Source: a virus (Duplodnaviria > Caudoviricetes). Taken from it: a DNA stretch of 64,000 bases. Positions 29,515 through 61,993 of this stretch are shown here, piece by piece (within the stretch, counting starts at the first letter, position 1; every line of letters begins with the position of its first letter). The notes below the pieces were generated by a model that did not search any database, was not told where the DNA came from, and worked only from the letters and a program-made list of their open reading frames with translations. Position numbers and translations under genes: made by a program. Location of the stretch: positions 64,001 to 128,000 of the IMG/VR virus record IMGVR_UViG_3300036802_000003; one strand, written 5' to 3'.

Positions 29515-29518
29515 TGAT

Positions 29519-31375: not shown

Positions 31376-31540
31376 ATGAGTGATAAACTGAGACAGTTCA
31401 CAAGTGTTAAGCCTAAGCATAAGATTGAGGGCACAGAGGGATTAATCAAGACTAAGGATGGCAAGACAATAAGAGATGACAGCTGGCTCCACCCTAGTGC
31501 TGGAGTGAAGAGGAAGAACCCAGAGGTACGGGGTGGGTAG
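31376..31540 (+). CDS. 54-aa basic peptide (not in ORF track), homolog of the N-terminus of 56065-59325
   Basis: AAGGAG RBS; MSDKLR...GTEGL...DDSWLHP. Confidence 0.7.
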   Translation: MSDKLRQFTSVKPKHKIEGTEGLIKTKDGKTIRDDSWLHPSAGVKRKNPEVRGG

Positions 31541-31760
31541 GCACCACCCCCCCCTATCTCTAACCCCCACCCCCTAAAGTTTTCTTTTTTGCCGTAGGTA
31601 GGAGTCCCGTTTCCTTTGGGAGTCTCACACCTGCCCCAACCCGACCGCCTTACACACCAACTTGTATCTTTTCGCATCCCCACATCACCCCCTACCCCCG
31701 ACACTCCCCAATATACCCCCACCCACCTTTTCTAACCCCCCCCACCCTTATTTTCACCCT
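31541..31760. other. C-rich non-coding tract (G-runs on minus strand)
   Basis: More than ten runs of 3-7 C. Confidence 0.75.
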
Positions 31761-31842
31761 ATAAAAAAGTACGTCACCTCCTTTTTCGTAGAAAAGAAAA
31801 CTTTTTTCTTTCGCATTCTTTTTAGTAAGGAGGGAAGAGAGC

Positions 31843-32187
31843 ATGCCTAACATAAAGTCAGAACCACCTACTCTTAACATTCACGGTATGGATATTCCTA
31901 TAATCATACCTGGCAACATGAGATTTCAGATAAGGAATAGAACTGCCTACTTTGAACTGCATAGGATAATGCTACCTAAGGAGCTTATGGGAGTGCTGAC
32001 CAACCATGTGTGGGCTGAAGGATACTTGAAAGTATTCATCGGTGTAATGTTTGCAGGAGAAGAGTATAACTATATGTCCTATAGAGGTCACATAGGAATT
32101 AGTAGCTACGAAGAGAAATCCGTAGAACGAGATATGTTGGTTCTAGAACATGTTCACTTTGTATTACATTTGATAGGAGGAGAATAA
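31843..32187 (+). CDS. tandem paralog array member 1
   Basis: LNIHGMDIP...IMLP. Confidence 0.8.
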   Translation: MPNIKSEPPTLNIHGMDIPIIIPGNMRFQIRNRTAYFELHRIMLPKELMGVLTNHVWAEGYLKVFIGVMFAGEEYNYMSYRGHIGISSYEEKSVERDMLVLEHVHFVLHLIGGE

Positions 32188-32188
32188 A

Positions 32189-32539
32189 ATGGGAATTACT
32201 GTTACTGATAAGAGTAGTCTTACTATTAAAGGCGTAGAGATAGACCACGAGGGGTTAAGGCTGGAAATGGCACCAAATGGAGGGGCTATTATCCATGTCA
32301 AGTCTATAACCTTACCTGAGGGGGACTGGAACCGCATACGAGAAAGTAAGACAGAGGTCTCTGCTATGCATACTAAGACTGTAGTTACTGACGGTAGCAA
32401 AGGGAGCACTTCTATAGCAAACAGAGCATTTACAGGTAAATTAGCTTCTGCTAGCTACTACTCAAAGCATACATCTGATTACATGGACGTTATCGGAGGG
32501 GTTACTCTTCGAGTTAATCCTAGTTGGGTGGTGGAGTAA
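32189..32539 (+). CDS. tandem paralog array member 2
   Basis: LTIKGVEIDH...ITLP. Confidence 0.8.
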   Translation: MGITVTDKSSLTIKGVEIDHEGLRLEMAPNGGAIIHVKSITLPEGDWNRIRESKTEVSAMHTKTVVTDGSKGSTSIANRAFTGKLASASYYSKHTSDYMDVIGGVTLRVNPSWVVE

Positions 32540-32877
32540 TGCACGTAACACACAGTGAGCTAACAATTGATGGGCTAGATATACCACACGTGGCTGAAGA
32601 GATGCTGATATCAGGCAAGGTGTTTCACGTACAATTTATGGGGGATGGTGGAGCTAAGGTATTCAACGATAATCTAACTATCCCTACCTACATCTATGAG
32701 AGGCAGGCAGAAGGGTTACCGTTTAAGCTAGTTCGACACTACAACTTTGGTGCCACTACAGGCACTATCACTACACAGGGAATGCTTAGATACATCCACT
32801 GTGAGGACAGTCACAATCCGACAGAAGGTAGTATTCATCTGTCAAAAGCTGTCTTTAGAATAGAGGAGGCACTATAA
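32539..32877 (+). CDS. tandem paralog array member 3
   Basis: LTIDGLDIPH...LTIP. Confidence 0.8.
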   Translation: MHVTHSELTIDGLDIPHVAEEMLISGKVFHVQFMGDGGAKVFNDNLTIPTYIYERQAEGLPFKLVRHYNFGATTGTITTQGMLRYIHCEDSHNPTEGSIHLSKAVFRIEEAL

Positions 32878-33233
32878 TGGAAGTAAGCACGCTAGCAATT
32901 GGTGGGTTTAATATACCCCATACTCAAAAGGCTGATTTGGTATTGGGCAAGCCCTTTTATATTGAAAGAGTACTAGGAGACAGATGGGACATATTCACTC
33001 ATAGTATTACTCTGCCTGCTGGCTTATATGATAAGATAAATGAGCCAGGTGGTCGTCAGCACTTTGCCTTACTACACCAAGCATCTCCAGAGGATAAAGA
33101 GAACTATACCCTGCATCAGGGATTCACTGAATACTGTGCTGCTACTACAGTGGAACGTGACGGAGACAGTGTTCATTTAAAACAAGCACGTTTCCGTATT
33201 ACTCCATACTTAGGGAGGAAAAGTGATGAGTAA
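32877..33233 (+). CDS. tandem paralog array member 4
   Basis: LAIGGFNIPH...ITLP. Confidence 0.8.
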   Translation: MEVSTLAIGGFNIPHTQKADLVLGKPFYIERVLGDRWDIFTHSITLPAGLYDKINEPGGRQHFALLHQASPEDKENYTLHQGFTEYCAATTVERDGDSVHLKQARFRITPYLGRKSDE

Positions 33234-33540
33234 ATCTATTGTCTTGTTTGGTACTACTTCTGTCGTTCACAGGGGATGTTCTGTTGAGGTATTGCCTGAT
33301 GGGGGTGCCTTGGTGAGAGTGGATAGGATGACCATCCCAGCAGACCTATGGAACAAGTCCATTTGTGACAGGGACTTTAGGGTAAAGATAATTCTCTCTA
33401 AGGAGGAACATGTTGTAGGTACATCAGGTATAGTAACTAGTGCAACCTATGACAAGGGAGATGGCATTCAGAACCTAGGAGTAATGAGAAATGTATCCCT
33501 TGGCTTGGCACGAGTGATACAATCAGGAGGTGGCAGATAA
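33226..33540 (+). CDS. tandem paralog array member 5
   Basis: IVLFGTTSVVH...MTIP. Confidence 0.75.
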   Translation: MSKSIVLFGTTSVVHRGCSVEVLPDGGALVRVDRMTIPADLWNKSICDRDFRVKIILSKEEHVVGTSGIVTSATYDKGDGIQNLGVMRNVSLGLARVIQSGGGR

Positions 33541-33890
33541 TGGCTAACCAAGAAGTAGACTTATCCTTCATGCATAGATTTAAGAGAGAAATGGAAGTAG
33601 TACCCTCTAACCTATGGTTGGGAGGGGTAGAAATCAAGCATCAAATGGAGCCACAAATGATAGACCTTAGCAGCCCTTTATCAACACATGTCAGAATAAA
33701 GAGAATGGTTATTCCTACACCAATCATGGATTCTTTTATGAATAATGAGATAGTCAGCTTTAAACTAGAGCACACCAGTAATACTCATGCTTTGGAAGGG
33801 GAATGTTGCTTACACTCCTGCATGGAGGGTCATGCTAGCAACCACTACCGAGCATTAGAAGATGTACTACTAACCGTCAGAGTTAAATGA
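33540..33890 (+). CDS. tandem paralog array member 6
   Basis: LWLGGVEIKH...MVIP. Confidence 0.8.
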   Translation: MANQEVDLSFMHRFKREMEVVPSNLWLGGVEIKHQMEPQMIDLSSPLSTHVRIKRMVIPTPIMDSFMNNEIVSFKLEHTSNTHALEGECCLHSCMEGHASNHYRALEDVLLTVRVK

Positions 33891-33948
33891 TACGAGGGAG
33901 AGGACTTTTGGTCTTCTCCTTCTTTTAATGTGAAGGGAGGGAGAGACG

Positions 33949-34158
33949 ATGAAGAAGGTGGAAAACATAGAGTGGGCTGGACATTGTGCCGAGTGCTTTA
34001 CGTGTGGGGCGTTTGCACCTAATATGAAGGAGTTCCACAAGCAATTAGACAAAGGACATTGGAGTAAGCGTCCATTAGCAGTAAACAATATGAGAATCAG
34101 TCAGCAATATATGCATAACTGTGAGAAAGCAAAGGAGGATAACAATGGGCAATTATAA
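33949..34158 (+). CDS. small Cys/His hypothetical protein
   Basis: GGGAGG RBS; CFTC. Confidence 0.65.
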   Translation: MKKVENIEWAGHCAECFTCGAFAPNMKEFHKQLDKGHWSKRPLAVNNMRISQQYMHNCEKAKEDNNGQL

Positions 34159-34450
34159 AGGAGCGCATCCGTGTCTATACTGGCACTTAAAGCCAGGGTA
34201 TTTCATGTACATGACTTCTGGTGTGAAGAAACAGATTAAGCTATTTGGTATTCCATTATTTAAGGTTAGGAAGTGGGAAATGTTTGAGGTACTAGACACA
34301 TCAGATAAGCGTGATGGCATGATAACAGTGCACGCTAAAGGTACTGAAACTGGCATAGAAATGAAGTTTACTCGTCGTAGCACAGCAGAGACAAGCTATT
34401 ATGTTATAGAGAAAACTGAAATTATTAAGCAAGGAGTGATTGACGTATGA
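34145..34450 (+). CDS. hypothetical protein
   Basis: AAGGAGG RBS before ATG 34145. Confidence 0.75.
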   Translation: MGNYKGAHPCLYWHLKPGYFMYMTSGVKKQIKLFGIPLFKVRKWEMFEVLDTSDKRDGMITVHAKGTETGIEMKFTRRSTAETSYYVIEKTEIIKQGVIDV

Positions 34451-34770
34451 GAAAGTCACTAATAGGCTTGGGAGTGTTTGCTTTACTAATAGCTGGGTGC
34501 TCTACTGGTGCTGAAGCTAAGAAGAAAGAGAAGGAACGTCCTCTAATGAGCTACCGTGATAAGCAGTTTAAGAACGATACTGGTCCAGGGTATACCTTTA
34601 ATAACTGGGTTGTGGACACACGTACAGGTTGCTTAATATCCTCTGTTGCTTGGGGCAAGGATGATTCAGGGATGACACAGGTTTTAGACCCAGAAGGTAA
34701 GCCTGTAGGGTGTTACAAAGCTGGTGGGATGTCTGTAGAAGATTACTTCAACCTACCACAGGATAAATAG
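34447..34770 (+). CDS. lipoprotein
   Basis: Signal peptide with lipobox LIAGC. Confidence 0.8.
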   Translation: MRKSLIGLGVFALLIAGCSTGAEAKKKEKERPLMSYRDKQFKNDTGPGYTFNNWVVDTRTGCLISSVAWGKDDSGMTQVLDPEGKPVGCYKAGGMSVEDYFNLPQDK

Positions 34771-34781
34771 GAGGTAAGGAG

Positions 34782-35045
34782 ATGAGCAGAATCATGACAC
34801 CATTCTTTGGTAAGTGGGATGATAATGAAGACAAGAATACTGTGGAACCTAAAGAACCTAGCCAACCTAGAAAGCATGTAAATATGTCAGAGAAGGACTT
34901 CAGGGTATCAGTATTAAAAGGTCTTGTAGCAATTGAGCATGCAATTCGTACTGGTAATAGACACTACTGGGCAAGTGATATGGAGATGGCAGTGCGCATG
35001 GCACAGTCTATGAGGGAGGATGATGGTAATGAACAAGGCAGTTAA
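34782..35045 (+). CDS. hypothetical protein
   Basis: ORF with RBS. Confidence 0.7.
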   Translation: MSRIMTPFFGKWDDNEDKNTVEPKEPSQPRKHVNMSEKDFRVSVLKGLVAIEHAIRTGNRHYWASDMEMAVRMAQSMREDDGNEQGS

Positions 35046-35340
35046 GGTACTGGAAGCTCTTATGTATGGTATTGATGTGAAGATGGATGGTCATGAATTA
35101 GTCTACTCTAGGGAGCATGAAGGGGTATTCATTAAGGGTGAGAAGTTTGAGCATGGTCAATTAGTCGAGCAAGGCAAAGGTACTCCAGTGCTACTAAATG
35201 CCGACTTTGACCTTAACTATTTCATTCGTAAGTGTGAAGAGATGCCTGACCATGAGATACTAGGTATCTGTGGCAGTCTTGCACTTACTAAACAGGTTCA
35301 TGCTAAGAGGAAGCCTAGGAAGGGGGTAGGGGATGAATAA
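35020..35340 (+). CDS. hypothetical protein
   Basis: ORF with RBS. Confidence 0.7.
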   Translation: MMVMNKAVKVLEALMYGIDVKMDGHELVYSREHEGVFIKGEKFEHGQLVEQGKGTPVLLNADFDLNYFIRKCEEMPDHEILGICGSLALTKQVHAKRKPRKGVGDE

Positions 35341-35463
35341 GGTAACTATTGCCTACTTTGTTGTAGTTGCTGTACTGGTTTGTGCCTTCTTCTACTGCAT
35401 GGGCAGGTCAGATGGTAACATGGAAATGTATCATAAACTGGTAGAGGAAGGGCTGATAAAGGA

Positions 35464-35661
35464 ATGAAGTACTTCTGGGGTGGTTTTGCTGGTGCTTTCT
35501 TGTGTGTAATCGTTAGCTTGGGAACGTGGTCAGTATTAGATTCTCTGTATGATAAAGGCTATGACAAAGGCGTTAAGGTAGGCATCGAGCAAGGCAAGAA
35601 GGATGCTATGAAAGACATTGAACTTAGCTACGATATGTGTGTTAAGAAGAAAGGGGAGTAA
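35464..35661 (+). CDS. small membrane protein
   Basis: N-terminal TM helix; GxxxG repeats. Confidence 0.7.
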   Translation: MKYFWGGFAGAFLCVIVSLGTWSVLDSLYDKGYDKGVKVGIEQGKKDAMKDIELSYDMCVKKKGE

Positions 35662-35664
35662 CAC

Positions 35665-35970
35665 ATGCAGGTAATATTTGCATTAGCTTTAGCTGCCTGT
35701 ATAGGCATGACATACTTCACAGACAACATGGCAGTCATAACCCTAGTTATTATTATTAACAGTATCTTTGCTCTGTTTGTGCTGAAAAATGAGGATTTAG
35801 CCTACCCTTCCACGTTCCTGTTAGTTACAGGGATAGTGGTTGGTCTGGTTGGAATGTGCCTAGCAATTATACTAGGCAATTACTATCTCATAGTTCTTGC
35901 ACTACCTTGGAGCGGTCTAGTAGTAAGTAGCTTTATACTAATGTTTAAAGAAGATAGGAGTGAATGGTAA
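35665..35970 (+). CDS. multi-TM membrane protein
   Basis: About four hydrophobic segments. Confidence 0.75.
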   Translation: MQVIFALALAACIGMTYFTDNMAVITLVIIINSIFALFVLKNEDLAYPSTFLLVTGIVVGLVGMCLAIILGNYYLIVLALPWSGLVVSSFILMFKEDRSEW

Positions 35971-36239
35971 TGAGAACAATGGACATGAAAATAGTAGATG
36001 AAAATGGGGTACTGGTAAACAAGCATAGTGATGGAGGTGACCATTATGGATGGGAAAACCCATTAGCTTTTGTACCAAGAGAAGGTGAGCTATTGACTCA
36101 TAAGAGATTTAGTCGAGAAGGAACTGGAGAGGAAAAGACCTACCGAGTTATTCGGGTGGTATATCACACTGAAGAAGATTATAACCATTCTTATAAGGGT
36201 TGGGTTGAGATTCGGGTTAGTGAGGTGACAGGAGCATGA
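35964..36239 (+). CDS. hypothetical protein
   Basis: ORF. Confidence 0.7.
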   Translation: MVMRTMDMKIVDENGVLVNKHSDGGDHYGWENPLAFVPREGELLTHKRFSREGTGEEKTYRVIRVVYHTEEDYNHSYKGWVEIRVSEVTGA

Positions 36240-36589
36240 AGCCATTCCTAGGTGAGGAGTTTCATCTAGATAAGAATACAGCTATCACGATGCTTGGAAT
36301 TAGCCTAAGGTTTTCATCTCGTATGCAACCTGTATATACTAATGGAATCAACGCTGAACCCCCTAGACAGGTTGACAGTCTTGATGGTCATATAAAGATA
36401 CAACAACGTAGTAAGGGTAACGAGGAGGTATGTAGGATATTTGGTAGTGCTCCACGTAGACGCTCTCATCTAGATGTACACGATATATCTATCCGTGAGC
36501 TTCCTTGGGAGCTACAAGAAAAGCTAGTAAATACCTGGGCTGAAGTGGAGAAGTACTTAAAAGATAGGACTAAGAAGGAGGAAGATTAA
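36236..36589 (+). CDS. hypothetical protein
   Basis: ATGA coupling. Confidence 0.7.
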   Translation: MKPFLGEEFHLDKNTAITMLGISLRFSSRMQPVYTNGINAEPPRQVDSLDGHIKIQQRSKGNEEVCRIFGSAPRRRSHLDVHDISIRELPWELQEKLVNTWAEVEKYLKDRTKKEED

Positions 36590-36822
36590 TGCTGATAGCA
36601 AGACTGACTCTACTATTCACTATTCTTGGTATGATGGGTGGAGCAATATATTTATTTACTCAAGGAGGTATAGGGTACTTCTTTGGCGCTATCTTGATGA
36701 TAGTAGCAGCCTACTTTGCAGAGGACTTCTATACTGATGAGAGCAAGAAGCCAGTCATGGTTACTATTGACCCTAAGGGCGACTGGAAACCAGTAAAAGG
36801 AGATGACACAAAATGGAAATAA
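36589..36822 (+). CDS. membrane protein, 2 TM
   Basis: Hydrophobic hairpin. Confidence 0.7.
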   Translation: MLIARLTLLFTILGMMGGAIYLFTQGGIGYFFGAILMIVAAYFAEDFYTDESKKPVMVTIDPKGDWKPVKGDDTKWK

Positions 36823-37130
36823 GAATCCCAGTTAAGAAAGAACCAGTTAGTAGCACCCCTTTACCAGAGAGGGTTGGAACTATAATAGTAGATGAAGATA
36901 CTGGACAAGCTTATCTGTTGGCAGTAAACCCTGCCGACCAAAACACTCCATACTTGGCTAGTTTGTACGGAGATAAGTACTGGACTATACAGAGAACTCA
37001 TTCTGAACCATGTGAACAGTTGTGTTACGGAGATATTGAGAATACTCTAGGAACTCCTGAAATCACACTATACACAACAGAAGAATACGTTTTAGACTTG
37101 GTAGCAAAGAAAAGACAAAAGCGCTCTTAG
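36813..37130 (+). CDS. hypothetical protein, paralog of 37218-37499
   Basis: GTIIVD..YLL..IExxLGT..T.EEY.L.LV. Confidence 0.75.
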   Translation: MEIRIPVKKEPVSSTPLPERVGTIIVDEDTGQAYLLAVNPADQNTPYLASLYGDKYWTIQRTHSEPCEQLCYGDIENTLGTPEITLYTTEEYVLDLVAKKRQKRS

Positions 37131-37217
37131 GAGTGCTTTTTCTTTTTGTATGAGACTTTTTCCATATAAAGGAAATTAATAATTGCTGGACGATACTTAA
37201 TTAAGGGAGCGGATTGT

Positions 37218-37499
37218 ATGCAAGTGATTGCACCTAAAGAAACTGTTGTGTCTCAGATTCCTATTGGTAGTGTTATTATTGACAGTGCTGGGTTCGAATA
37301 TCTTTTAACTGGACGTATGGCTGAAGAGGTTGGGGAGTATGATAAAGCTGTCCTACATAGATTCAGTGGTCAAGGTCGCCATGAGTGGGGTCATGACCTA
37401 TCTAAGCCTGTAGCTCCTGAAGAGATAGAAGGGGCACTGGGTACCAGCTTCAAAGTATTCACTCCAGATGAGTATATGTTACAGTTAGTTAAGAAATAG
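37218..37499 (+). CDS. hypothetical protein, paralog of 36813-37130
   Basis: GSVIID..YLL..IExxLGT..T.DEY.L.LV. Confidence 0.75.
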   Translation: MQVIAPKETVVSQIPIGSVIIDSAGFEYLLTGRMAEEVGEYDKAVLHRFSGQGRHEWGHDLSKPVAPEEIEGALGTSFKVFTPDEYMLQLVKK

Positions 37500-37584
37500 A
37501 CCCCTAGTGGGTCTTTTTCTATGATATGACCTGTGCATTGAGGATACGAATTTTATACTTGATTACGAAAAAGGAGGTATTCTC

Positions 37585-37782
37585 ATGCCAAAACCATATC
37601 CTGGTTCTAAGTATATTCCTGGTTTAGGAAAGAGTGTCAAAATCATGGGTAACGAGATTGATGTACCAAGTGTGAAAACTGCCTTAGGTTTAGGTGGCAC
37701 ACCTGCTAAAATCCTTCCTACTGACATTGACATGGCTAAGCTATTAGTTGAACTGGACAAGACTTACACTCGTAAGCCATAA
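37585..37782 (+). CDS. small hypothetical protein, apparently monocistronic
   Basis: AAAGGAGG RBS; flanked by terminator hairpins. Confidence 0.75.
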   Translation: MPKPYPGSKYIPGLGKSVKIMGNEIDVPSVKTALGLGGTPAKILPTDIDMAKLLVELDKTYTRKP

Positions 37783-37789
37783 GCCACTT

Positions 37790-37820
37790 AAAAAGACTAC
37801 TCTTAAGAGTAGTCTTTTTT
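37790..37820 (+). terminator. bidirectional terminator
   Basis: AAAAAGACTACTC-TTAA-GAGTAGTCTTTTTT. Confidence 0.8.
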
Positions 37821-37894
37821 ATTTTTAAGTATAAAAGAGAAAAGTTTTAAAAGGTTAATTATTTAATTTTGAATTTAAAGGAGGTATTTTTAAT

Positions 37895-38050
37895 ATGAAA
37901 AGTAATAAAGAAATTAAAAGACCTACCCTAAATAGCATTAGAGAAGAACTTGGTATGAAACGTATAGATTTAAAAGAAGTTCAGTTAGTACAGTCTTACA
38001 GTGACCACATTAAGAATTTAAATTTAAACCTACCAGAGAGAAGAAATTAA
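37895..38050 (+). CDS. 51-aa hypothetical protein (not in ORF track)
   Basis: AAAGGAGG RBS; MKSNKEIKRPTLNSIREELGMKRI... Confidence 0.6.
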   Translation: MKSNKEIKRPTLNSIREELGMKRIDLKEVQLVQSYSDHIKNLNLNLPERRN

Positions 38051-38095
38051 GCTCTCTGGTTTTTTCATTTTGAAAGCCCAAAGGAGGAATGATTT

Positions 38096-38473
38096 ATGAA
38101 TCCAAACTATCCATTTAATGACAGTGCAGACAGAGTGTGGGGTTGTATTAACTACAAGAATTATAACAACGGTGTATGGGTTATTACTATCGAGTACAAA
38201 GAGTTAGAAGAGTCAAAGGGTAACCGATTAGCAGTAACTTTAGGGACTAAAGCAGAAACAATTAACTATATTGCCAGCCTATCCATACCAGTTGAAAGCC
38301 CTGCAACTATAACAAGTATTGTTCATATTCAGAACAATGGTGCCATCTTCCGTTATGCACTTACTATTGATGACGAAACAAACACATTTGGCTTACTGGA
38401 GACAACAAGATTATCATGTGCAACTACTTCAGTAAGACCTACTGCACCAAGAAATCCTAACAAGAATGACTGA
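38096..38473 (+). CDS. hypothetical protein
   Basis: AAAGGAGG RBS. Confidence 0.75.
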   Translation: MNPNYPFNDSADRVWGCINYKNYNNGVWVITIEYKELEESKGNRLAVTLGTKAETINYIASLSIPVESPATITSIVHIQNNGAIFRYALTIDDETNTFGLLETTRLSCATTSVRPTAPRNPNKND

Positions 38474-38654
38474 ATAACAGGAGAGACAGAAATGATAGAC
38501 AAAATAATCCTACTAGTAATCGGACTAGTGACGTTAACATCAGGAATAGTAATGAGTTACTTTGATACAGGTTTAGCAAGAGCAATCGGCATACTGATTG
38601 TAGCTTGCTGCCTGTGTCTTTTTGCAATCACCATACTGTATGGGTGGGGTAAAC

Positions 38655-39311
38655 GTGAAAGAAAATGAGATGTATAAGTATGTTAAAGAGCTACTTGAAG
38701 GCATTGGCTACGATGTCTATGCCGAGGTGGAAGTTAATTCTTGGGGTGGTAGTGGTAGAGCTGACGTAATTGGTTACAACAAGCCTGCCGTATGTATCGT
38801 GGAGATGAAGACTTCTCTGTCTATGGAACTGATTGAGCAAGCGTATAAGTGGAAGCGTTTTGGTCATTACATCTATATTGCCATACCTAAACGTAAGAAG
38901 CAAATACCCACATTTGTGTGTAACATGCTGTCTAGTATGGGAATTGGCATCATAGAGGTCGGTGACCGTGTGTGGGGTACACGCATAGTGCTGAAAGCTA
39001 AGTTCAACAGACCCTATAAGAATACTAAATGGGATGATGTATTGAAACCCGAACACCAGACATGGCTAGAAGGTGGCTCAAGTGGTGGGGGGTATGTAAC
39101 CAACTACAAGCTGACTATAGATAGGGTGAAGAGGTATCTAAAGTCGAAGAAGAGTTGGATTTCTATGAACGAAATACTAGAGCATTGTGAAACGCACTAC
39201 TCTAACCCTAAGAACTCCCTAGCAAAGGCTCTTAGGGAGTTTGAATCGAATTGGTGTGAGACAAAGGTAATAGACAGAAGAGTACACTTTAAATACAAGG
39301 AGGGTAAATAA
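38655..39311 (+). CDS. PD-(D/E)xK nuclease-fold protein
   Basis: E...RADVIG...IVEMKT...EQA motif. Confidence 0.75.
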   Translation: MKENEMYKYVKELLEGIGYDVYAEVEVNSWGGSGRADVIGYNKPAVCIVEMKTSLSMELIEQAYKWKRFGHYIYIAIPKRKKQIPTFVCNMLSSMGIGIIEVGDRVWGTRIVLKAKFNRPYKNTKWDDVLKPEHQTWLEGGSSGGGYVTNYKLTIDRVKRYLKSKKSWISMNEILEHCETHYSNPKNSLAKALREFESNWCETKVIDRRVHFKYKEGK

Positions 39312-39511
39312 TGGCTGGACTTACCGTAACTCTTAGCCCTGCTGAGATTAAAGAAATACTTATTAAGCACTTGAAAGAGGAATATCCTAGCCTGACTATT
39401 AAAGATGTTGACTTTAATGTAGACAAGCAACTAGAAGGCTATGGAATGCAGGAACATTATGTAACAAGATTTAATGGTGCTACTTGTAGCCTAAGAAAGG
39501 GGAATGCATAA
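39311..39511 (+). CDS. hypothetical protein
   Basis: TAATG coupling. Confidence 0.7.
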   Translation: MAGLTVTLSPAEIKEILIKHLKEEYPSLTIKDVDFNVDKQLEGYGMQEHYVTRFNGATCSLRKGNA

Positions 39512-40014
39512 TGACGACAACCCATACCCTAGAGGAAAATGGGTATAGATCTGTAACCTACCAGCCCAGACCCATCCAGTTTATCATAACCTCTACTAGT
39601 TGTTGGGAGTGTGTGAGTCACAAGAAAGATAAATATGGATACACAGTAGTAAATAGGTGGGACTCTAAGATTAAATTGCACAGATATAGCTACATGTTGC
39701 ATACAAAGGAGTCCTTGACTAAAGAAGACATAATAAGGCATACCTGTGACAACCCAGCTTGCCTTAACCCCTCTCATCTTATAAAGGGTACTGTACAGGA
39801 TAACAACCAAGATATGGTTGACAGGGATAGGTACCGTAAAGGTAATAAACATATTTTAGCCACTCTTACTGAGGAGAAATACTTTGAAATAATGAAGGAA
39901 ATATCTTTAGGTAGAAGTGGTGTAGACATAGAGTCTATAACTGGAGTCTCAAGAGATATTGTTTACAAGATAAAGAAGGGAACTCATTGGAGTTGTAAGG
40001 AGTTTACCAAATAG
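39511..40014 (+). CDS. HNH homing endonuclease with C-terminal HTH
   Basis: CWE..LHRYSY..IRHTCDNPACLNPSHLIKGTVQDN. Confidence 0.9.
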   Translation: MTTTHTLEENGYRSVTYQPRPIQFIITSTSCWECVSHKKDKYGYTVVNRWDSKIKLHRYSYMLHTKESLTKEDIIRHTCDNPACLNPSHLIKGTVQDNNQDMVDRDRYRKGNKHILATLTEEKYFEIMKEISLGRSGVDIESITGVSRDIVYKIKKGTHWSCKEFTK

Positions 40015-40084
40015 ACACTGAGGGGAGGAATTTCGATTCTTCCTCTTTTATTTTTGTGAAGACGTTGAGAAGGAGGAATCAGTA

Positions 40085-40357
40085 GTGAGCAGATTGAAAT
40101 TAAGTAAATTTGGTGGAGGATTTTTAAGTGGGGTTATCATCACAGATACTGAAACTAACAAGAATGTGGAGCTTATGGCAATGCAGTTAAAGGCTCTAAT
40201 CAGAAACCCAGAAAGTGGTACTTTTCCACATGGGGGATATGACCAAGAGGGTGATGTTATCACTGTATACCATGACGATGACAGAGAGAAACATGAAGTA
40301 TCATTCACTCTAGAGGAACTAAATGAAACTTTGGAGGGGGCTATTGCAAATGGCTAA
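40085..40357 (+). CDS. hypothetical protein
   Basis: AAGGAGG RBS. Confidence 0.7.
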   Translation: MSRLKLSKFGGGFLSGVIITDTETNKNVELMAMQLKALIRNPESGTFPHGGYDQEGDVITVYHDDDREKHEVSFTLEELNETLEGAIANG

Positions 40358-40694
40358 AATTGATTGCACATTCCATAGAACAAGCAACCACAATGTAGAA
40401 GTACACAGCCCTATGGGAGATTTCCGTATCATGAAGATGAAACATGAGTATGAGGATATAAAGAAAGCAGGATTCCTTAAAAGTAATAAAGAGCCTGCCT
40501 ATAAGGTATCCTCAGTGTGTGACAGCTTAGTGACTATGCTTAACTTATATAATGAGTCTGGTCAACTTACAGGAGACGTTTTCAATAACTTAATAAATGC
40601 ATACAGACCGTTCATACTGAACTACATGGTTTATGCCATGATAAATCAGCGTGTTAAAGAGGCTAAGAATCCTGAAGGGTGGTTAGACGCATGA
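40350..40694 (+). CDS. hypothetical protein
   Basis: GGAGG RBS before ATG 40350. Confidence 0.7.
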   Translation: MAKIDCTFHRTSNHNVEVHSPMGDFRIMKMKHEYEDIKKAGFLKSNKEPAYKVSSVCDSLVTMLNLYNESGQLTGDVFNNLINAYRPFILNYMVYAMINQRVKEAKNPEGWLDA

Positions 40695-40927
40695 GTAATG
40701 AAATCTATGTATTGCATGACGCTTGGGGCAACCCTGTAATGTCAGCAGGAAAGACTAGGTCAGTAGTGAAAAGCTACACTACTACTCATGGAGCAAACAT
40801 TGCTAGAACTAATATGGGTGGTAAAGGTCATATGAAGATTGCAGTGTATAAGCCAGCAGGATATGTAACAGAGATTAATGGTAAGAAGGAGGAATGTCTC
40901 AATGAAGAAGATTTTAACCGCAGTTAG
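40691..40927 (+). CDS. hypothetical protein
   Basis: ATGA coupling. Confidence 0.65.
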   Translation: MSNEIYVLHDAWGNPVMSAGKTRSVVKSYTTTHGANIARTNMGGKGHMKIAVYKPAGYVTEINGKKEECLNEEDFNRS

Positions 40928-41159
40928 TCTATCTGCATTGCTACTTTCAGGGTGCTCTAGTGTAACTAAGGATAAGGAGGCTATCATGGGAGAAGGGGTT
41001 AAGTTACCTTCTGGATATGATGTCATTAGCTCTGACAGAATTGACTCTAATGTGTATGTGTTTGAGCTAGTTCACAAGAAAACTAAGAAACACTACTCTG
41101 TAGTCTGTTATGCAGGAAGTGGAGTTACTATGTATGAGTTAGATGGGGAGGATAAATAA
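40902..41159 (+). CDS. lipoprotein
   Basis: MKKILTAVSLSALLLSGC lipobox. Confidence 0.8.
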   Translation: MKKILTAVSLSALLLSGCSSVTKDKEAIMGEGVKLPSGYDVISSDRIDSNVYVFELVHKKTKKHYSVVCYAGSGVTMYELDGEDK

Positions 41160-41485
41160 TGGTAGTCTTTGGAGAAGGTTGTGCATGGGTACACCCAGAA
41201 GTATTATCCTCAATAGAGGATGGTTACGATTATGATGAAGTAGGTCTTAAGCATATAGAAGACTTGGGTTGGACAGTGGAACACAAGATGCAGAGTAAGG
41301 CTGTTATATTCCAGTCTAGGGCATCTGGAAAGTTCTATATGCTAGAACTAAATAGAGAAGGTGACGACTTCAAGGGTTATGAGCACCTGGACTACATGGA
41401 TACTACAGATTCAGAAGGACGTATCAAATGTAGTGAAGTTACTAAGGAAGAGGTCATCTCTCATATTTGGAAGGGGGTGAAGTAA
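41159..41485 (+). CDS. hypothetical protein
   Basis: TAATG coupling. Confidence 0.75.
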   Translation: MVVFGEGCAWVHPEVLSSIEDGYDYDEVGLKHIEDLGWTVEHKMQSKAVIFQSRASGKFYMLELNREGDDFKGYEHLDYMDTTDSEGRIKCSEVTKEEVISHIWKGVK

Positions 41486-41561
41486 TGAACGCATACACTG
41501 AAAATGGAGTATATGAGATCACTAAGCTTTTAGCTGAAGCTAAAGGAAATAAGTAAGTAGT

Positions 41562-41589
41562 AAAGGAGGGGCTAAAACCCCTCCTTTTT
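41562..41589 (+). terminator. rho-independent terminator
   Basis: AAAGGAGGGG/CCCCTCCTTT then T-tract. Confidence 0.8.
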
Positions 41590-41673: not shown

Positions 41674-44508
41674 GTGATGAGCAGAGGTAGAAAGTGTTAT
41701 ATTCGCATAGACAACCCTAAAGGTACTAAAAAGAAGGATAAAAAGAAAGATGAATTAGTACACGAGTTAGGACTAGAGAATTTCAAGAATGACCTACGCC
41801 CAGAGGTATGGAAGAGTAATGAGCCAGAGCTGATTATTAAGTCTGATGAGGAGTACATAGAAGAGTACTTTGACTTAGAGAAAATAATCCACGAGGAAGA
41901 GGTAGCAAAGGCAGGACGAGTCCATCTTCCTAGGGGTGCTAGACGTCACGCTTACAAAGTGCATTCTGACCACGGTGTAATTTACATTCCAGTCAATCGT
42001 TTGAAGCAGGTGTACCAAACTCACCTAGCACTTCATAGGAGAAAAATCGCCCAAAACAAAGTTTCGATGCGAATGGGTAAGCCACTTCAACCCGTTGAAA
42101 TCGGATATAATTATGATGTTCACGATGGGCATCATAGATGGGAAGCCTCCAAAGAGCTAGGATACACACACGTTCCTTGTAAGGTAGTAGGGGATGACCC
42201 AGACAAGTTAAGGGACGCAAAAGAGAAGTATCGTGCTGTATGGAAAGCAGAAACACCTGAACAGTTAGCAGAGACTTTACTACAGGACTTTGTAGATAAG
42301 CTAACGGGTAAGAAACCTGTGTCCTTGGTACTTGACATTAACAAAGCCACTCTTAACAGAGGAAAGTTAGTTAAGAGACGTGTAATGGTTAAGGGTAAGG
42401 ATGGAAAGGTCTTCTATCGCATGCAGTGGATTGACCCTAATGATGAGAAGGCAGATATCCACCAAAAAGTACCTGACCAAGAGAATCACACAACATACAA
42501 GCATGATGATAAGTCAGTAAAGGAAATAGAAAAAAGACAGCATAACCGTTTTCCAGTAGTACAACATGAGGTAAAGCACTTCAAGAATAAGGAACACAAT
42601 TACTCTACTGACAAGGAAGCCTACAATGAAGCTAAGGAGAAATACCACAGAGGTGAGAAGCTACAGCCTGTTAAGGTCAACCATAAAGGGGAGATACTTG
42701 AGGGACATCACCTTGTAGACCTAGCTAGAGAGTTAGGATTAACTCATGCTCCTGCAATTGTATTAGGTAATCCTAAATTGAAGAAAGAGTATGAGGATGC
42801 ACTAAAAGAGGACGTAATGACTGAAGTTACTGACGAGGAAGGTAATAAGAAGGAAGTATCCGCTTCTGGTAAAGGTACCTCTGCTGATGGAACACAACGT
42901 GGTCAGCATATGGTCGTAGACGTTCCTGTAGAATATGTAGATGATATGGAACACTTCAAGCGTTATGTCAATAAGATGTATACTAAATCATACATCATGG
43001 ATTGTGCAGAAAAGGCTGGCATTACATGGAATGATAAGAAGGCAGACGGAACTCTACTAACAGATGAGAAGATTCTATGGACTAGGGTTTTCAACTCTAT
43101 ATCTGAACACATAGCTGCTGGTAATAAGTTTGAAGTGCCTCATGATGATAAGGACTCTAGTGCAAAGATGAAACAGATTAAGAAGGATGATGACCACAAG
43201 TTCTTCCTTATGTTCTGTAATAAGTTTAACTTTGACAGGGAAAAGATTAAGGACTGGTGTAGAGACCATGACCTTCTATGGAAAGAGAACCATAAAGACC
43301 CTGATATTGATTGGAAAAACTGTGCTATGGCTATCAAGAAAGAATTATCTAAAGGTAAGATGCTGAATGGGGTACGTACAAGACGTAAACACCTTATGGA
43401 GGAAGCAAATACTATTGTAACAGATGCAGTTCGTGAACAGGTTAAAGCCCTTGGTAAGAAGTATGGCAAGACAGCTTTAGAAGAACAAGCACTAAAACAA
43501 GGTATTGAAGTAGACCTTCTAGATAAGAAAGGTAACGTAGTAGAACACCCAGCTATCAGATGGATGAGGGTAGCGACTGCTATTCAGAAGCATATTGCCA
43601 AAGGTAATAAGTTTAAGATGACTAATGACGATTTCGGTACAGAGGGAAGAATTCAAGCTGAAGAGTTTGATTATGGTGACAACGTTACTCTGACTCCACA
43701 TGAGCGAGTAGGTATCGATAGAGCCAAGCTTAACAGTAAGAAATTTGAACAACGTGCTAAGAAGTGGGCTACCAAGTCATTAGCTCTTGACCACGGTATT
43801 GACCCTAGCAATACAGTAATGGTAGATGAAGTGTACGATGCCTTTGTTGAAGGTGCTCGTAATGCTAAGTTAATGGTGCACTTTGACCCTACAGAATTAC
43901 TGGATAGTGGTACGTCTATGCTAGAGGAAATGATGTCTTCAGGTAAGCTAAAGAACGATTTCCAACTAGATAGAGGGTATGATAATGAGCATAGAGAGGT
44001 TATCGAACGTGATATCTACGGTGATGACTTTGATGGTGCAGAAGACCATGAGCGCCCAGTATATGGTGTGCTAGACATATTCAATCAAGGCTTGAGCCTA
44101 GGACAACATGGTGGAGCAGCCTTAGTAATGAAGGAAGATGTTAAGAAACGTGCCTCTGGTACACCAAATGACTCTAACTCAATCCCTTATGGCAAAGAGG
44201 GCAAACTAGTGCACTCTGCTACAGACCCACATCACCTAGTAATACACCGTTGGTTTGGGCGTTGGAAAGAGCCTAAGAATGCTGATGGTAAGCGTAGACG
44301 TGCTATGAACTCCGTTATTGAGGGTACAACATTCAATGACGATAAAGAGTACTTTGAAGCACAGGTACTTGGGGGAGTGGACTTGGCTAAGGATGTAGAC
44401 CATATTCTAGTACCAGAACACTGGCAAAGTAACTCAGAGTGGCAAGACCATCATGAGCTAATGAAAATGTTTGCAGAGTCACAAGGGATAGGATTAAGAT
44501 ATGAGTGA
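41674..44508 (+). CDS. multidomain protein: ParB-like x2, shared module, helical repeats x3, DUF3626-like C-terminus
   Basis: VHDGHHRWEA; ILEGHHLV; LVLDINKA..RMQW; VHFDP..ERPVYG..YFEAQVLGGVDLAKDV. Confidence 0.85.
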   Translation: MMSRGRKCYIRIDNPKGTKKKDKKKDELVHELGLENFKNDLRPEVWKSNEPELIIKSDEEYIEEYFDLEKIIHEEEVAKAGRVHLPRGARRHAYKVHSDHGVIYIPVNRLKQVYQTHLALHRRKIAQNKVSMRMGKPLQPVEIGYNYDVHDGHHRWEASKELGYTHVPCKVVGDDPDKLRDAKEKYRAVWKAETPEQLAETLLQDFVDKLTGKKPVSLVLDINKATLNRGKLVKRRVMVKGKDGKVFYRMQWIDPNDEKADIHQKVPDQENHTTYKHDDKSVKEIEKRQHNRFPVVQHEVKHFKNKEHNYSTDKEAYNEAKEKYHRGEKLQPVKVNHKGEILEGHHLVDLARELGLTHAPAIVLGNPKLKKEYEDALKEDVMTEVTDEEGNKKEVSASGKGTSADGTQRGQHMVVDVPVEYVDDMEHFKRYVNKMYTKSYIMDCAEKAGITWNDKKADGTLLTDEKILWTRVFNSISEHIAAGNKFEVPHDDKDSSAKMKQIKKDDDHKFFLMFCNKFNFDREKIKDWCRDHDLLWKENHKDPDIDWKNCAMAIKKELSKGKMLNGVRTRRKHLMEEANTIVTDAVREQVKALGKKYGKTALEEQALKQGIEVDLLDKKGNVVEHPAIRWMRVATAIQKHIAKGNKFKMTNDDFGTEGRIQAEEFDYGDNVTLTPHERVGIDRAKLNSKKFEQRAKKWATKSLALDHGIDPSNTVMVDEVYDAFVEGARNAKLMVHFDPTELLDSGTSMLEEMMSSGKLKNDFQLDRGYDNEHREVIERDIYGDDFDGAEDHERPVYGVLDIFNQGLSLGQHGGAALVMKEDVKKRASGTPNDSNSIPYGKEGKLVHSATDPHHLVIHRWFGRWKEPKNADGKRRRAMNSVIEGTTFNDDKEYFEAQVLGGVDLAKDVDHILVPEHWQSNSEWQDHHELMKMFAESQGIGLRYE

Positions 44509-44518
44509 GGTGGACTAA

Positions 44519-44806
44519 ATGAAAATGGTAGTGGAAGGTATCAAGCTGACCAAAGACCATAAAGATGATAAGATTCTCTATCGTAAGAATGGTAAGTACT
44601 ATGTCAGGAGGGCATCAGATGGCTTTACCAAAGGTGAGGCTATTAGACAACACGTATCCTCTTACTTTACTAAGTGGGGTTTTAGAAAGGTAGAGGGCGT
44701 AGCGGAGTTTGATAATGCAGAGGATATACAGGCGAATATTGATAGATTCGAGCCTGCTAAAGGTTATATAGCCAAATATGCAGAGTCGGTACTTCCGAGG
44801 GGTTGA
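44519..44806 (+). CDS. small protein downstream of the DUF3626-like gene (candidate partner/immunity)
   Basis: GAGGTG RBS; 10 nt after upstream stop; terminator follows. Confidence 0.75.
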   Translation: MKMVVEGIKLTKDHKDDKILYRKNGKYYVRRASDGFTKGEAIRQHVSSYFTKWGFRKVEGVAEFDNAEDIQANIDRFEPAKGYIAKYAESVLPRG

Positions 44807-44890
44807 TTTCCAAACCCCTCCTTTTTTTATGCTGAAAGGGAGTTCCCCAATTGGCACTCTCTAATAAAGTTGAGGAAGGAAGTGTATAGC

Positions 44891-45607
44891 ATGTTTGCTG
44901 TTGGAGGTATCGTTGCTGAGTACAAGCATAATAACGAGGACTTATTCGCACAACTAGAGAGTGCTAAAACGGAAGAGGAACGTAAAGAAGTAGTGGGAAT
45001 TATTTATCTGAACAATGTAAGAATCATACATAAAGCTATAGGTAAATGGTTCCCTGGAGAAGCCCTTAATAGGTTCTGTCAAAGACACAGATTGACTCCA
45101 GAGGATGTTTTTAGTGAGGTTAGTTACAGTCTACTTAGAGCTATACAAACCTTTAATGGAGGTAAGTTCACTTCATATGCTGGTTTCTGTATGGATAACC
45201 AACTAAAGATGCTGTACCGAACTGTTAAGAGAAAAGGCGATATGACTAGTCTACAGTCAGAAGTGAATGAAGAGTCAGACAATGATAAGAAGAGTCTAAC
45301 TATAGAGGAAGCATTTCTATCTGCTGAAGATAAAGGCTATTCTGCTCTATGGGATACTGAAGAATTCAATACAATAGTCCCTCACTTAAAGAGATGCTTT
45401 AGACGTGGTAATGAGGCTAAGGTGTTAACTATCTTCCTGAAAGAAGTACAGAAGGATGCAGGAGATATGATGTCACAGAAAGAAATGGCTGAAGTGATAG
45501 GTGTTAGTAAGTCTACTGTCAACAAGACAGTAACTAAAATAAATAAACAGGCTAGAGAAATTAGGAGGGAACTATATGAAAGCGAATTACAGCGACAGAC
45601 TAGTTGA
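44891..45607 (+). CDS. RNA polymerase sigma factor (SigE/SigK-like)
   Basis: Region 2 EDVFSE..LLRAIQTF..KFTSYAGFCMDNQL; region 4 HTH SQKEMAEVIGVSKSTV. Confidence 0.85.
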   Translation: MFAVGGIVAEYKHNNEDLFAQLESAKTEEERKEVVGIIYLNNVRIIHKAIGKWFPGEALNRFCQRHRLTPEDVFSEVSYSLLRAIQTFNGGKFTSYAGFCMDNQLKMLYRTVKRKGDMTSLQSEVNEESDNDKKSLTIEEAFLSAEDKGYSALWDTEEFNTIVPHLKRCFRRGNEAKVLTIFLKEVQKDAGDMMSQKEMAEVIGVSKSTVNKTVTKINKQAREIRRELYESELQRQTS

Positions 45608-45995: not shown

Positions 45996-46457
45996 ATGAA
46001 GGGTATCAATCATTACAAGGTTCTCTCTAATGCCTATGGCAGAAAAGAACTATTAGAAATGGGTAAGAACAATGGTCTTAGTTGGCAGGAGGATAACGGA
46101 CGTGAAGGTGTCAACTGGATGAGATTTAGTAGGGCGTTAGTAAAGCACCTAGATGAGGACAAACACTTTGACACTGACAGTACAGATACAGAGTCCCTAC
46201 AGTCAATGCTGGATCAGTATACTCAGTTGAGAGATATGCATAAGCAAACTATGATTCCTCATGTAAGAGCTGGGTTGTCTAAGTTGTACTCTCAAGGAGA
46301 TGCAACTAGCAAAGACCCTATGGAATATCTCCCTAAAGTATATGACCACTTAGATGCCAATGGTGGACACGTGTGGGCTGAGAAAGTAAGGACTCTGGGT
46401 AGTCTTAATAGTCAGATTAAGGGTATAACTGAAAAACTCTCTACGAGACAAGTTTAG
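45996..46457 (+). CDS. protein with one copy of the helical repeat
   Basis: GRKELLEMGKNNGLSWQED..EGVNWMRFSRALVKHL. Confidence 0.8.
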   Translation: MKGINHYKVLSNAYGRKELLEMGKNNGLSWQEDNGREGVNWMRFSRALVKHLDEDKHFDTDSTDTESLQSMLDQYTQLRDMHKQTMIPHVRAGLSKLYSQGDATSKDPMEYLPKVYDHLDANGGHVWAEKVRTLGSLNSQIKGITEKLSTRQV

Positions 46458-54779: not shown

Positions 54780-56093
54780 TTGGAACTAATAATAGACGTA
54801 TCCAAGGCAAGAGTACTTAACACAGGTAAGCTAGTCAAACGTGCGGTACAGGTAAAAGGACAGGGTGGTAGAACATTCACTCGTATGCAATGGATAAATC
54901 CTGATAAAGGTAAACCAGTAATGGAGACATCACATGAAGGACATGAAGACCCTCATGCACATAGAGTAGCTAGTATGAGTCCTGAACAGAAGCATTCTAT
55001 GGTTAATCACTTTGTATCTAATAATAGGGATGAAGCGAATGACCTAGCAATGACTACAGGACAGAAGAGAGCACCTTATGTAGCAGACCATCAGGTTGCC
55101 CAGCACTTAATGGATCATGCACACAAGATACCCCATGAATACGTGAAAGACCACTTAGACAGTAAAGAGTCAAAGCCTAGTCTAAATGTAGTGGGAAGTG
55201 ACCTTCCAGAGAAGGAAGTTAACAAGCGTATGGGTAAGGAAGGTAGCTTAGACTTGTCCAAACTCAATACAGGGGCTTCAATGTATGATGATGACATCTT
55301 TAAAGAAGATACAGAGTATGCCCAAGATGAAGGTCTTAACCCAGAGAAGGAATTTAGGCATGTATTCAAAGACGTTACTAAAGCTGGTATTGAGAATGTA
55401 TTTTCTGACCCTAAGGGTAACTGGACTGCACAGGTATCAGGTTATGACCTATTCCAGGATGGGGATAACGTGAACTGTGGCTTAAACATGACCCTATACG
55501 ACAAGGATGGGGAGAAGATGGGACACATCATACGTTCAGCTTACCATGATGCAGATGGTACTCTACAGATACACAATGATGAGATGGAGTTAAAGACACA
55601 GTATCATGGTAAAGGGGTAGCACAAACTATATACGACAGGTCTGAGCAATTATGGAGACACCTATCAGGTGGACATAAAGTAGAGATAAATCTGACAGCC
55701 AATATTAGTGTTGGTGCCTATGCGTGGTCTAAGAAAGGCTTTGATTTTGCTAATGACAAGGAGTTAAAGATGGCTAGGGAAGAACTGAAACACTTCTGTA
55801 GAGGTAACGATATTAGTCTAGCGGATGTGCTCAAAAAGAGTGGATACAAGGGTATAGATGACCTCAACCACTCATGGCAGTTCTCTACACTACAGAATGG
55901 TAAATCTTATGAACTTGACAAAGTTATAGACCCTAAATATAAAAAGGATGTTGAGGGTAGAGAAGGTCATTTTGGTAAGGCTTTCATGCTAGGCGGATTG
56001 GGTATATGGGACGGTAAAAAGACACTAAACGATGACCATTCTTCAGAAAAAGTAGGTGAAATACATGGCAGAGCAACTAAAAAGAACAGCTAG
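54780..56093 (+). CDS. shared-module protein with C-terminal GNAT-like domain
   Basis: LIIDVSKA..LNTGKL..RMQW; QYHGKGVA; ANISVGAYAW; paralog of 29519-31375. Confidence 0.85.
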   Translation: MELIIDVSKARVLNTGKLVKRAVQVKGQGGRTFTRMQWINPDKGKPVMETSHEGHEDPHAHRVASMSPEQKHSMVNHFVSNNRDEANDLAMTTGQKRAPYVADHQVAQHLMDHAHKIPHEYVKDHLDSKESKPSLNVVGSDLPEKEVNKRMGKEGSLDLSKLNTGASMYDDDIFKEDTEYAQDEGLNPEKEFRHVFKDVTKAGIENVFSDPKGNWTAQVSGYDLFQDGDNVNCGLNMTLYDKDGEKMGHIIRSAYHDADGTLQIHNDEMELKTQYHGKGVAQTIYDRSEQLWRHLSGGHKVEINLTANISVGAYAWSKKGFDFANDKELKMAREELKHFCRGNDISLADVLKKSGYKGIDDLNHSWQFSTLQNGKSYELDKVIDPKYKKDVEGREGHFGKAFMLGGLGIWDGKKTLNDDHSSEKVGEIHGRATKKNS

Positions 56094-61932: not shown

Positions 61933-61993
61933 TAGTATATGTGTTATAAGGTCTATAACTGATTTTATACTTTAGATACAAGGGGGTGAAGTG

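Follow-up and report, generated by a model that had tools for sequence, protein, structure and literature searches.

The locus described here raises the question of what is encoded by a large phage gene that the databases carry as a partition protein. The gene was studied in a stretch of viral DNA of 64,000 nucleotides (positions 64,001 to 128,000 of the IMG/VR record IMGVR_UViG_3300036802_000003; hereafter the window), where positions 41674-44806 hold two genes, a large open reading frame (ORF) of 944 open codons (41674-44508) and a small ORF for a protein of 95 aa (44519-44806). The DNA of this segment is 90-93% identical to that of the Bacillus phages JL, Shanette, CP-51, and S4-1, and the source phage is a CP-51/JL-like Bacillus cereus phage (Siminovitchvirus, Spounavirinae, Herelleviridae) with a genome of 139,244 bp, of which the window covers bases 64001-128000. 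The large ORF is the orthologue of gp68 of phage JL and of the 'ParB-like partition nuclease' of CP-51, and PHROG 26588 covers it from end to end; in GenBank and RefSeq, JL gp68 is labelled 'partition protein' or 'ParB-like partition nuclease'. The orthologue of the small ORF, which belongs to phrog_26341, is JL gp69, a hypothetical protein by annotation. An initial annotation of the locus had instead proposed an injected, NAD-using enzyme analogous to Alt of phage T4, with the product of the small gene as its partner or immunity protein. Residue numbers refer throughout to the 944-residue ORF counted from position 41674, and the two genes, the encoded domains and the flanking hairpins are all on the plus strand.

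The identity of the large protein is most clearly indicated by its C-terminal domain of approximately 240 residues (43792-44505), which was recognised in the initial annotation as DUF3626 with a predicted ADP-ribosyltransferase (ART)-like fold. The motifs listed there, VHFDP (residues 735-739), ERPVYG (793-798), DS (833-834), and YFEAQVLGGV (893-902), are all present, and Pfam confirmed the family assignment, as DUF3626 (PF12294), with a cut-off of 27 bits, scored 31.8 with the whole protein and 37.4 with the domain alone. When 1.8 billion representatives were scanned in full with HMMER, 74 relatives were returned. Fourteen of these scored below 1e-30, thirteen being long proteins (716-1480 aa) and one a piece of 229 aa, followed by a tail of stand-alone proteins of 260-400 residues. 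All 38 relatives that were aligned are DUF3626 proteins according to Pfam, and when the profile of this alignment was compared with the PDB, the Salmonella effector SopF was the only match (E 1e-28). No match was obtained when the PDB was searched with the single sequence of the C-terminal domain, and a word-indexed homologue search found none of the stand-alone relatives; SopF was reached only by the full HMMER scan and the profile.

The predicted structure points to the same family. In the full-length AlphaFold model, residues 675-706 form a long helix and residues 707-944 a compact alpha/beta domain. An AF2 model of the domain alone (predicted local distance difference test score, pLDDT, 89; predicted TM-score, pTM, 0.89) matched SopF in Foldseek with an E value of 2.4e-10 and in VIA-align with a Z score of 15.0 (root-mean-square deviation 3.4 over 217 residues). 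The next VIA-align matches were DarT (Z 9.4 and 9.3), the tRNA 2'-phosphotransferase Tpt1 (7.7), CopC/OspC3 (7.5), and CteC (5.6), and all of the top eleven, as well as nearly all of the 40 matches listed, were ART-fold or closely related NAD-using proteins. The ART-like fold proposed at the outset is thus supported by the model.

The residues expected to carry the catalysis are conserved. Y797 and E895 were invariant in all 21 homologues (about 40-55% identity) and H736 was found in 19 of them, while the ERPxYG and FE[AST][QH] motifs were invariant or nearly so across the same set. E895, the glutamate of YFEAQ, aligns with the Glu of the Y-I-E-A motif of SopF, which is replaced by Asp in the NAD-bound structure 7DN9 compared with 7DN8, and Y797 aligns with the Tyr of R-P-I-Y in SopF. 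On strand 1, the phage domain has M-V-H-F where SopF has T-I-N-F. A further residue, R774, does not vary in the alignment of the wider family but does so within the phage subfamily, and was for this reason given no catalytic weight. This variability would fit an NAD+ glycohydrolase, or a domain that binds but is catalytically silent, in place of a transferase, and ART folds do include NADases (SPN, a weak match with Z 2.2). Conservation of Y797, E895, and both motifs across the 21 homologues argues instead for retained SopF-type catalysis, and we consider a glycohydrolase or silent domain quite improbable. On the combined sequence and model evidence, we assign the C-terminal domain to the SopF (DUF3626) family of mono-ADP-ribosyltransferases, with its key residues intact and its activity predicted. 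Membership in the Alt clade (R-S-E, Alt/VIP2) was also considered and was rejected on the SopF-type Tyr and Glu, the His/Val on strand 1, and a Pfam scan of the 944-residue protein that found no match to ADPrib_exo_Tox.

SopF has been reported to carry DUF3626 (PMC6682159). It is an ARF GTPase-activated ADP-ribosyltransferase whose triad is I-Y-E and whose substrate is Gln124 of ATP6V0C (PMC10333799). The phage domain shares its Pfam family and fold (PDB 7DN8/7DN9), the two align at the Tyr of RPxY[GA] and at the Glu of Y-[IF]-E-A, and delivery into a target cell, known for SopF, is proposed for the phage domain as well. There are also differences. SopF is a type III effector of 374 residues that acts in eukaryotic cells, whereas the phage domain ends a protein of 944 residues and is only 13-15% identical to it; the Asn on strand 1 of SopF is His in the phage domain; and the latter must act in a bacterium, which has neither ARF nor a V-ATPase. 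In the accessible literature, DUF3626 was mentioned only in work on Salmonella, and no paper tying SopF-type enzymes to phages was found.

The 'ParB' of the database labels corresponds to two domains upstream of the enzyme. The first (about residues 90-192; 41941-42249) contains DGHHR at 151-155, ends in a conserved VWK-A site, and was matched by phrog_26754 (E 1e-55) and Foldseek, while the second (about residues 290-378; 42541-42807) contains EGHHL at 343-347 and was matched by phrog_620 and phrog_940. The two domains match each other in tblastn with an E value of about 1e-7 (4e-8 for the second domain against the first), and Foldseek placed the fold with Noc, ParB, sulfiredoxin, and SbnI at probabilities of 0.98-1.0. 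The Pfam ParB_N model reached 19.4 bits, below its cut-off of 26.3, and both domains were recognised by fold and PHROG profiles only. Sequence profiles and structural models together identify them as divergent ParB/Srx superfamily members, the closest being those of phage ParB-methyltransferase fusions (phrog_498). The initial annotation had described the first domain as having an intact DGHHR motif. This holds for the fold and for residues 151-155 of the present protein, but not for the family, as five of the 21 homologues are missing the first domain and, of the 16 with it, just 10 retain the arginine. Because of this absence and the loss of the arginine, catalysis by the first domain is not a constant of the family, although in the window phage the domain could well be active. 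The loss of the arginine noted in the second domain extends to 21 of 21 homologues, and this domain is therefore probably non-catalytic.

These two domains bear on the database annotation, according to which the protein would be a ParB-type partition protein or nuclease for segregation of the phage genome, with the C-terminus as an accessory. The GenBank and RefSeq labels agree with this and the ParB/Srx fold is real. However, a Pfam scan of the 944-residue protein reported neither a ParB helix-turn-helix nor a dimerisation domain, ParB_N remained below threshold, and none of the adjacent genes with a family match was ParA-like; the neighbours with an annotation or a match are hypothetical proteins and a sigma-factor-like gene. 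In addition, conservation was highest in a shared beta-hairpin module, the helical repeats (both described below), and the ART domain, and not in the first ParB domain, and the phage is lytic. Membership in the partition ParB (ParABS) proteins was rejected on the missing helix-turn-helix and dimerisation domains and the missing ParA-like neighbour, and we regard a role in partition as very improbable.

The ParB/Srx domains might instead bring a DarT/Tpt1-like enzyme to DNA, where its substrate would be nucleic acid and not protein: it would mark or block the DNA of the host, or the genome of the incoming phage would be modified by it. After SopF, DarT (Z 9.4 and 9.3) and the tRNA 2'-phosphotransferase (Z 7.7) are the nearest structures, and the nearest ParB/Srx domains belong to the phage ParB-methyltransferase fusions (phrog_498), a class reported to nick DNA (PMC5512222). 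The phage group also makes hydroxymethyl-dU DNA, with a dUMP hydroxymethylase in phages of the CP-51 group (PMC4528723). Nevertheless, the sequence family is that of SopF, whose sole characterised member modifies a glutamine in a protein, and the gap between Z scores of 15 for SopF and 9 for DarT is large. The first ParB domain, moreover, is absent or has lost its Arg in many homologues, and no DNA-binding helix-turn-helix was detected by Pfam. DarT, the DNA ADP-ribosyltransferase toxin of DarTG, is comparable to the phage domain as the second-closest structure (Z about 9, Foldseek E 2.5e-4) and as an ART acting in bacteria, but differs in having no detected kinship at the sequence level and another architecture, and no macrodomain antitoxin is found near the window gene. 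We consider a nucleic-acid target unlikely.

The full-length model was built from 21 homologues and had a mean pLDDT of 73. Approximately 89 residues at the N-terminus (41674-41940) are predicted to be disordered, with mean pLDDT values per block of ten residues of 27-53 over residues 1-89 and values below 50 over residues 1-21, 31-34, and 36-89; this part contains three hydrophobic-x-K-[S/A] sites (at 45, 54, and 77). A low-confidence linker (residues 193-227; 42250-42354) follows the first ParB domain and ends in an INK-A site directly before the beta-hairpin module, and a second disordered stretch covers residues 399-418. Between this stretch and the long helix, three helical repeats were identified at about residues 425-500, 508-566, and 584-650 (42934-43623) from the model, the alignment, and phrog_22909. 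Repeats one and three match each other with an E value of 2.5e-7, and the middle one was read from the alignment and the model, in agreement with the three repeats described initially. A profile of the repeats gave only chance-level matches in the PDB, and there was no usable Atlas match. The same helical repeat as in residues 425-650 also occurs in a separate gene two to three genes downstream (orf153; 45996-46457, phrog_22909), which is syntenic with the large gene in the five diverged loci reaching that far (L012, L013, L015/16, L041, and, as a JL gp72 homologue, Exiguobacterium phage vB_EalM-132). Most of the diverged homologues (P0004, P0006-P0009, P0011, and P0012) have an extra N-terminal segment of approximately 70 residues (MTKTHIVAV...YKG) that CP-51-like proteins do not have.

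The beta-hairpin module between the two ParB domains (about residues 227-256, LNRGKLVKRRVMVKGKDGKVFYRMQWIDP; 42355-42441) comprises two predicted strands, 233-240 and 246-253, and is a candidate head-targeting tag. Its internal position, and that it is shared, had been pointed out in the initial annotation; it was found to recur in three other large ORFs of the window. One copy (29507-29650) forms the N-terminus of the ORF (29420-31375) that follows the gene for the large terminase subunit (TerL; 27838-29514), and two more, at 54780-54905 (ORF 54780-56093) and 56212-56385 (ORF 56056-59325), are located just upstream of the portal gene (60343-61932). A weak copy was observed at 59746-59847 in ORF 59710-60252. 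In the phage collection, the module is restricted to Siminovitchvirus and phage vB_EalM-132, with three to four copies per genome.

Processing of the protein is suggested by a short sequence motif. The maturation protease of phage HK97 cuts after Lys. We counted the motif [LIVMFWY]-x-K-[ASG] in the 187 ORFs of the genome and compared the counts with a composition-based expectation. The highest enrichment was observed in the scaffolding protein, with 14 sites where 1.3 were expected (P 1e-10), followed by the prohead protease, with 9 where 1.7 were expected (P 9e-5). These two proteins were named by PHROG and are encoded at 61991-63590 of the window; the major capsid protein (L002:2608-4011) has LNK-A at residues 22-25. 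This distribution is the pattern expected of a recognition site for an HK97-type maturation protease, and predicts the cleavage specificity of the phage enzyme. The first 236 residues of the large protein hold five sites (VWKS45, IIKS54, VAKA77, VWKA189, and INKA222) against 1.3 expected (P 0.012 by shuffling), which bears out the N-terminal clustering and the flanking of the first ParB domain seen at the start. VAK-A before and VWK-A (as VWK[SAG]) after this domain were each found in 16 of the 21 homologues, and INK-A before the module, as [LIV]xK[ASG], in all 21. The same type of site stands directly before the module in the other three tagged proteins and in the metagenomic protein P0025. 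Judged by its distribution, the motif behaves like a maturation-protease site and marks domain boundaries.

The gene order in related phages connects the large gene to DNA packaging. Six diverged relatives, in which the protein is 44-50% identical, were found in Exiguobacterium phage vB_EalM-132 and in the IMG/VR contigs L012, L013, L014, L015/16, and L041. The large gene directly follows TerL in L012, L014, and L041, and follows TerL and a homologue of the 651-residue tagged protein in vB_EalM-132, L013, and L015. Comparison of these loci indicates that the large gene is ancestrally part of the terminase operon. In the window, the tagged gene after TerL is separated from the 944-residue gene by approximately 35 small ORFs (31400-41500); they are absent in the six diverged relatives, and this block looks like an insertion of accessory genes into the terminase operon. 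The phage vB_EalM-132 (L003 1-598) encodes a NadR-like NAD biosynthesis protein a few kb upstream of the block of terminase and ART genes, which may bear on an NAD-consuming effector.

The enzyme domain has also been joined to delivery domains elsewhere. Among more distant relatives, DUF3626 was found fused to Phage_Mu_F, the domain of SPP1 gp7-type minor head proteins, in P0067 (E 6e-21), P0070, and P0063, and to eCIS_core, a cargo domain of extracellular contractile injection systems (eCIS), in P0072. P0025, a metagenomic protein of 392 residues that was not found in IMG/VR or the JGI metagenomes, consists of the module tag and DUF3626 only. Structural matches in the BFVD included a siphovirus 'minor capsid protein', several large proteins of uncultured phages (one with GNAT), and giant-virus proteins. 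The MuF and eCIS fusions and the BFVD matches suggest that DUF3626 has repeatedly been used as delivered cargo. In many of the stand-alone relatives (P0030, P0041, P0054, P0059, P0077, P0081, and P0082), a glycine-rich motif that is nearly identical between them (GGPGSGN[FW]GHAGRPGxVGGS) stands upstream of the enzyme domain; it may serve other delivered proteins as a linker or in processing.

We propose a composite model, to which we assign a probability of roughly 0.5, in which the large protein is a polyvalent ART effector that is packaged in the head, trimmed, and ejected. The 944-residue protein would be synthesised together with the head proteins, and its 29-residue beta-hairpin module would bring it into the procapsid. 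The prohead protease would trim it at hydrophobic-x-K|[A/S/G] sites, which would remove the disordered N-terminus and could release the first ParB domain, leaving a fragment of module, second ParB domain, repeats, and ART domain. Ejected with the DNA, this fragment would act, like T4 Alt, when infection begins; the ART domain would use NAD+ to modify a host target, and the three helical repeats would probably serve in target or DNA binding. The product of the 95-aa gene would be co-transcribed and would most likely act on the large protein, either by inhibiting it in the producing cell or by helping in its loading or folding. Delivery is made more credible, on comparative grounds, by the terminase-operon context in the relatives, the shared tag, the protease-type motif across the genome, and the MuF and eCIS fusions. 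The earlier analogy to T4 Alt is thereby strengthened with respect to injection, whereas the enzyme itself does not belong to the Alt (R-S-E) clade.

Several observations weigh against delivery in the virion. In the window, the gene pair lies about 10 kb downstream of TerL, past the approximately 35 small ORFs, and has its own terminators: intrinsic-terminator-like hairpins are predicted 5' of the pair (41562-41587; a stem of 10 bp with six GC pairs and a T run) and, from a hairpin scan, at the end of the small gene (44797-44820), and these bracket a two-gene unit. A late promoter of the SPO1 type (-35 CGTTAGA) was not recognisable for the pair, GTTAGA being observed 48 times against 56 expected. 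Counted over its whole length, the large protein has 9 protease-type sites against 5.2 expected, which is marginal (P 0.07), and the K[ASG] before the module could belong to the module itself and not be a cleavage site. The first ParB domain is an inconstant component, as described above. Furthermore, SopF depends on a eukaryotic ARF GTPase as activator and bacteria have no ARF, and a literature search found no virion proteomics for CP-51.

Part of this evidence would be explained if the same enzyme were not packaged but acted within the cell, made during infection as are ModA and ModB of T4, and modified host or phage proteins, the module being an interaction motif unrelated to head loading. 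The separate terminators, the distance of 10 kb from TerL, the position among small ORFs of a kind that is usually expressed early, and the sigma-factor-like gene after the pair are all in keeping with an intracellular enzyme. It accounts less well for the adjacency to the terminase gene in the six diverged relatives, for the restriction of the module to proteins encoded beside TerL and the portal gene, for the conserved protease-type site before every module, and for the fusion of sister domains to MuF and eCIS cargo domains. We regard an unpackaged enzyme as possible, if doubtful.

A more far-reaching form of the packaged-effector model may be considered, in which a single portable tag of approximately 29 residues loads GNATs, a zincin peptidase, and the ParB-ART protein into the capsid of CP-51-like phages, where the prohead protease cuts them at hydrophobic-x-K|[A/S/G]; the latter would be a polyprotein that yields a free first ParB domain and a fragment of tag, second ParB domain, repeats, and ART domain. 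The SopF family would in that case descend from phage-delivered ARTs acting on a bacterial target without ARF, and the 95-aa protein would be a dedicated inhibitor in the producing cell. We put this form forward only tentatively.

The small gene itself was found together with the large gene wherever this was checked, as the initial annotation had expected. An identical set of eight records in the phage collection contains the small protein and the ART domain. With the small protein, 13 loci were found in IMG/VR, each of which has the large gene immediately upstream, and wherever a diverged locus continues beyond the large gene, the small gene comes next. In the diverged loci, the small protein is 31-41% identical and the large protein 44-50%. 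The sigma-like gene, orf119, orf153, and orf319 downstream are also syntenic, and because the whole block is conserved in this way, adjacency alone is no proof of a specific partnership. The suggested immunity function is likewise backed by nothing beyond this adjacency. The small protein had no Pfam match, its profile matches in the PDB were at chance level, and its Atlas scores were below 0.8.

With respect to expression of the gene pair, translation of the large ORF probably starts at ATG 41677, giving a protein of 943 residues, because the ORF opens with GTGATG at 41674, a good ribosome-binding site is present, and both the JL protein start (MSR...) and the Atlas record agree with this start. 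The region 5' of the pair had no k-mer in common with other intergenic regions, and sigma-70-type matches fell below the expectation from shuffling. The sigma-factor-like gene (phrog_351) is located at 44870-45607, directly after the small gene, and has the same position in two diverged loci (L013:9930-10748 and L041:4280-5026); in or beside a block headed by the terminase gene, this is an odd position for a transcription factor.

Among known systems, the packaged effector resembles those described in the survey of polyvalent proteins by Iyer, Burroughs, Anand, de Souza, and Aravind (2017), in which combinations of ParB and ART domains were connected with virion genes and an injection in the earliest phase was predicted (PMC5512222). 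The likeness lies in the two ParB/Srx domains, the repeats, and the ART domain within one phage polypeptide, in the neighbouring GNAT and zincin-peptidase proteins, and in the linkage to packaging genes, which is found downstream of TerL in the six relatives and, in the window, at a distance of 10 kb. The survey describes ARTs of the Tox-ART-HYD2 clade, DdrB-type ParB domains, and processing by MPTase, and does not mention DUF3626 (PMC5512222). The window phage also differs in having its effector set distributed over four separately encoded proteins with one short tag. The proposed similarity to T4 Alt is that of an NAD-using enzyme which would be packaged in the head, cut back by the prohead protease, and ejected, so that host proteins would be modified as infection begins. 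Alt, however, is a single-domain protein of the R-S-E clade with a short capsid-targeting sequence, and its packaging and targets are known from experiments, while those of the phage protein are proposed. In the toxin fusions of MuF (SPP1 gp7-like) proteins (P0067, P0070, and P0063) and in eCIS cargo (P0072), sister ART domains form the C-terminal cargo; the window protein has no Phage_Mu_F or eCIS_core domain, and the lineage-specific beta-hairpin module may take over that role. The comparison suggests that the protein belongs to the packaged or polyvalent ADP-ribosyltransferase effectors of phages, a kind already known, of which it would be a SopF-type version combined with ParB domains.

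If the scheme of tag and protease site is true, it would explain how cargo enzymes are loaded into the heads of SPO1-like phages, and it would also correct a misleading 'partition protein' label that has spread through the records of CP-51, JL, and Shanette. The enrichment of the motif in the scaffold and prohead protease provides a testable prediction of the specificity of the maturation protease in this group of phages. SopF has so far been known only as a Salmonella effector with a need for a eukaryotic cofactor. The presence of a conserved, predicted SopF-family enzyme in lytic Bacillus phages suggests that the family also operates in the conflict between phages and bacteria, and the phage enzyme, together with the MuF and eCIS fusions of the same domain, offers a tractable system for finding its bacterial target.

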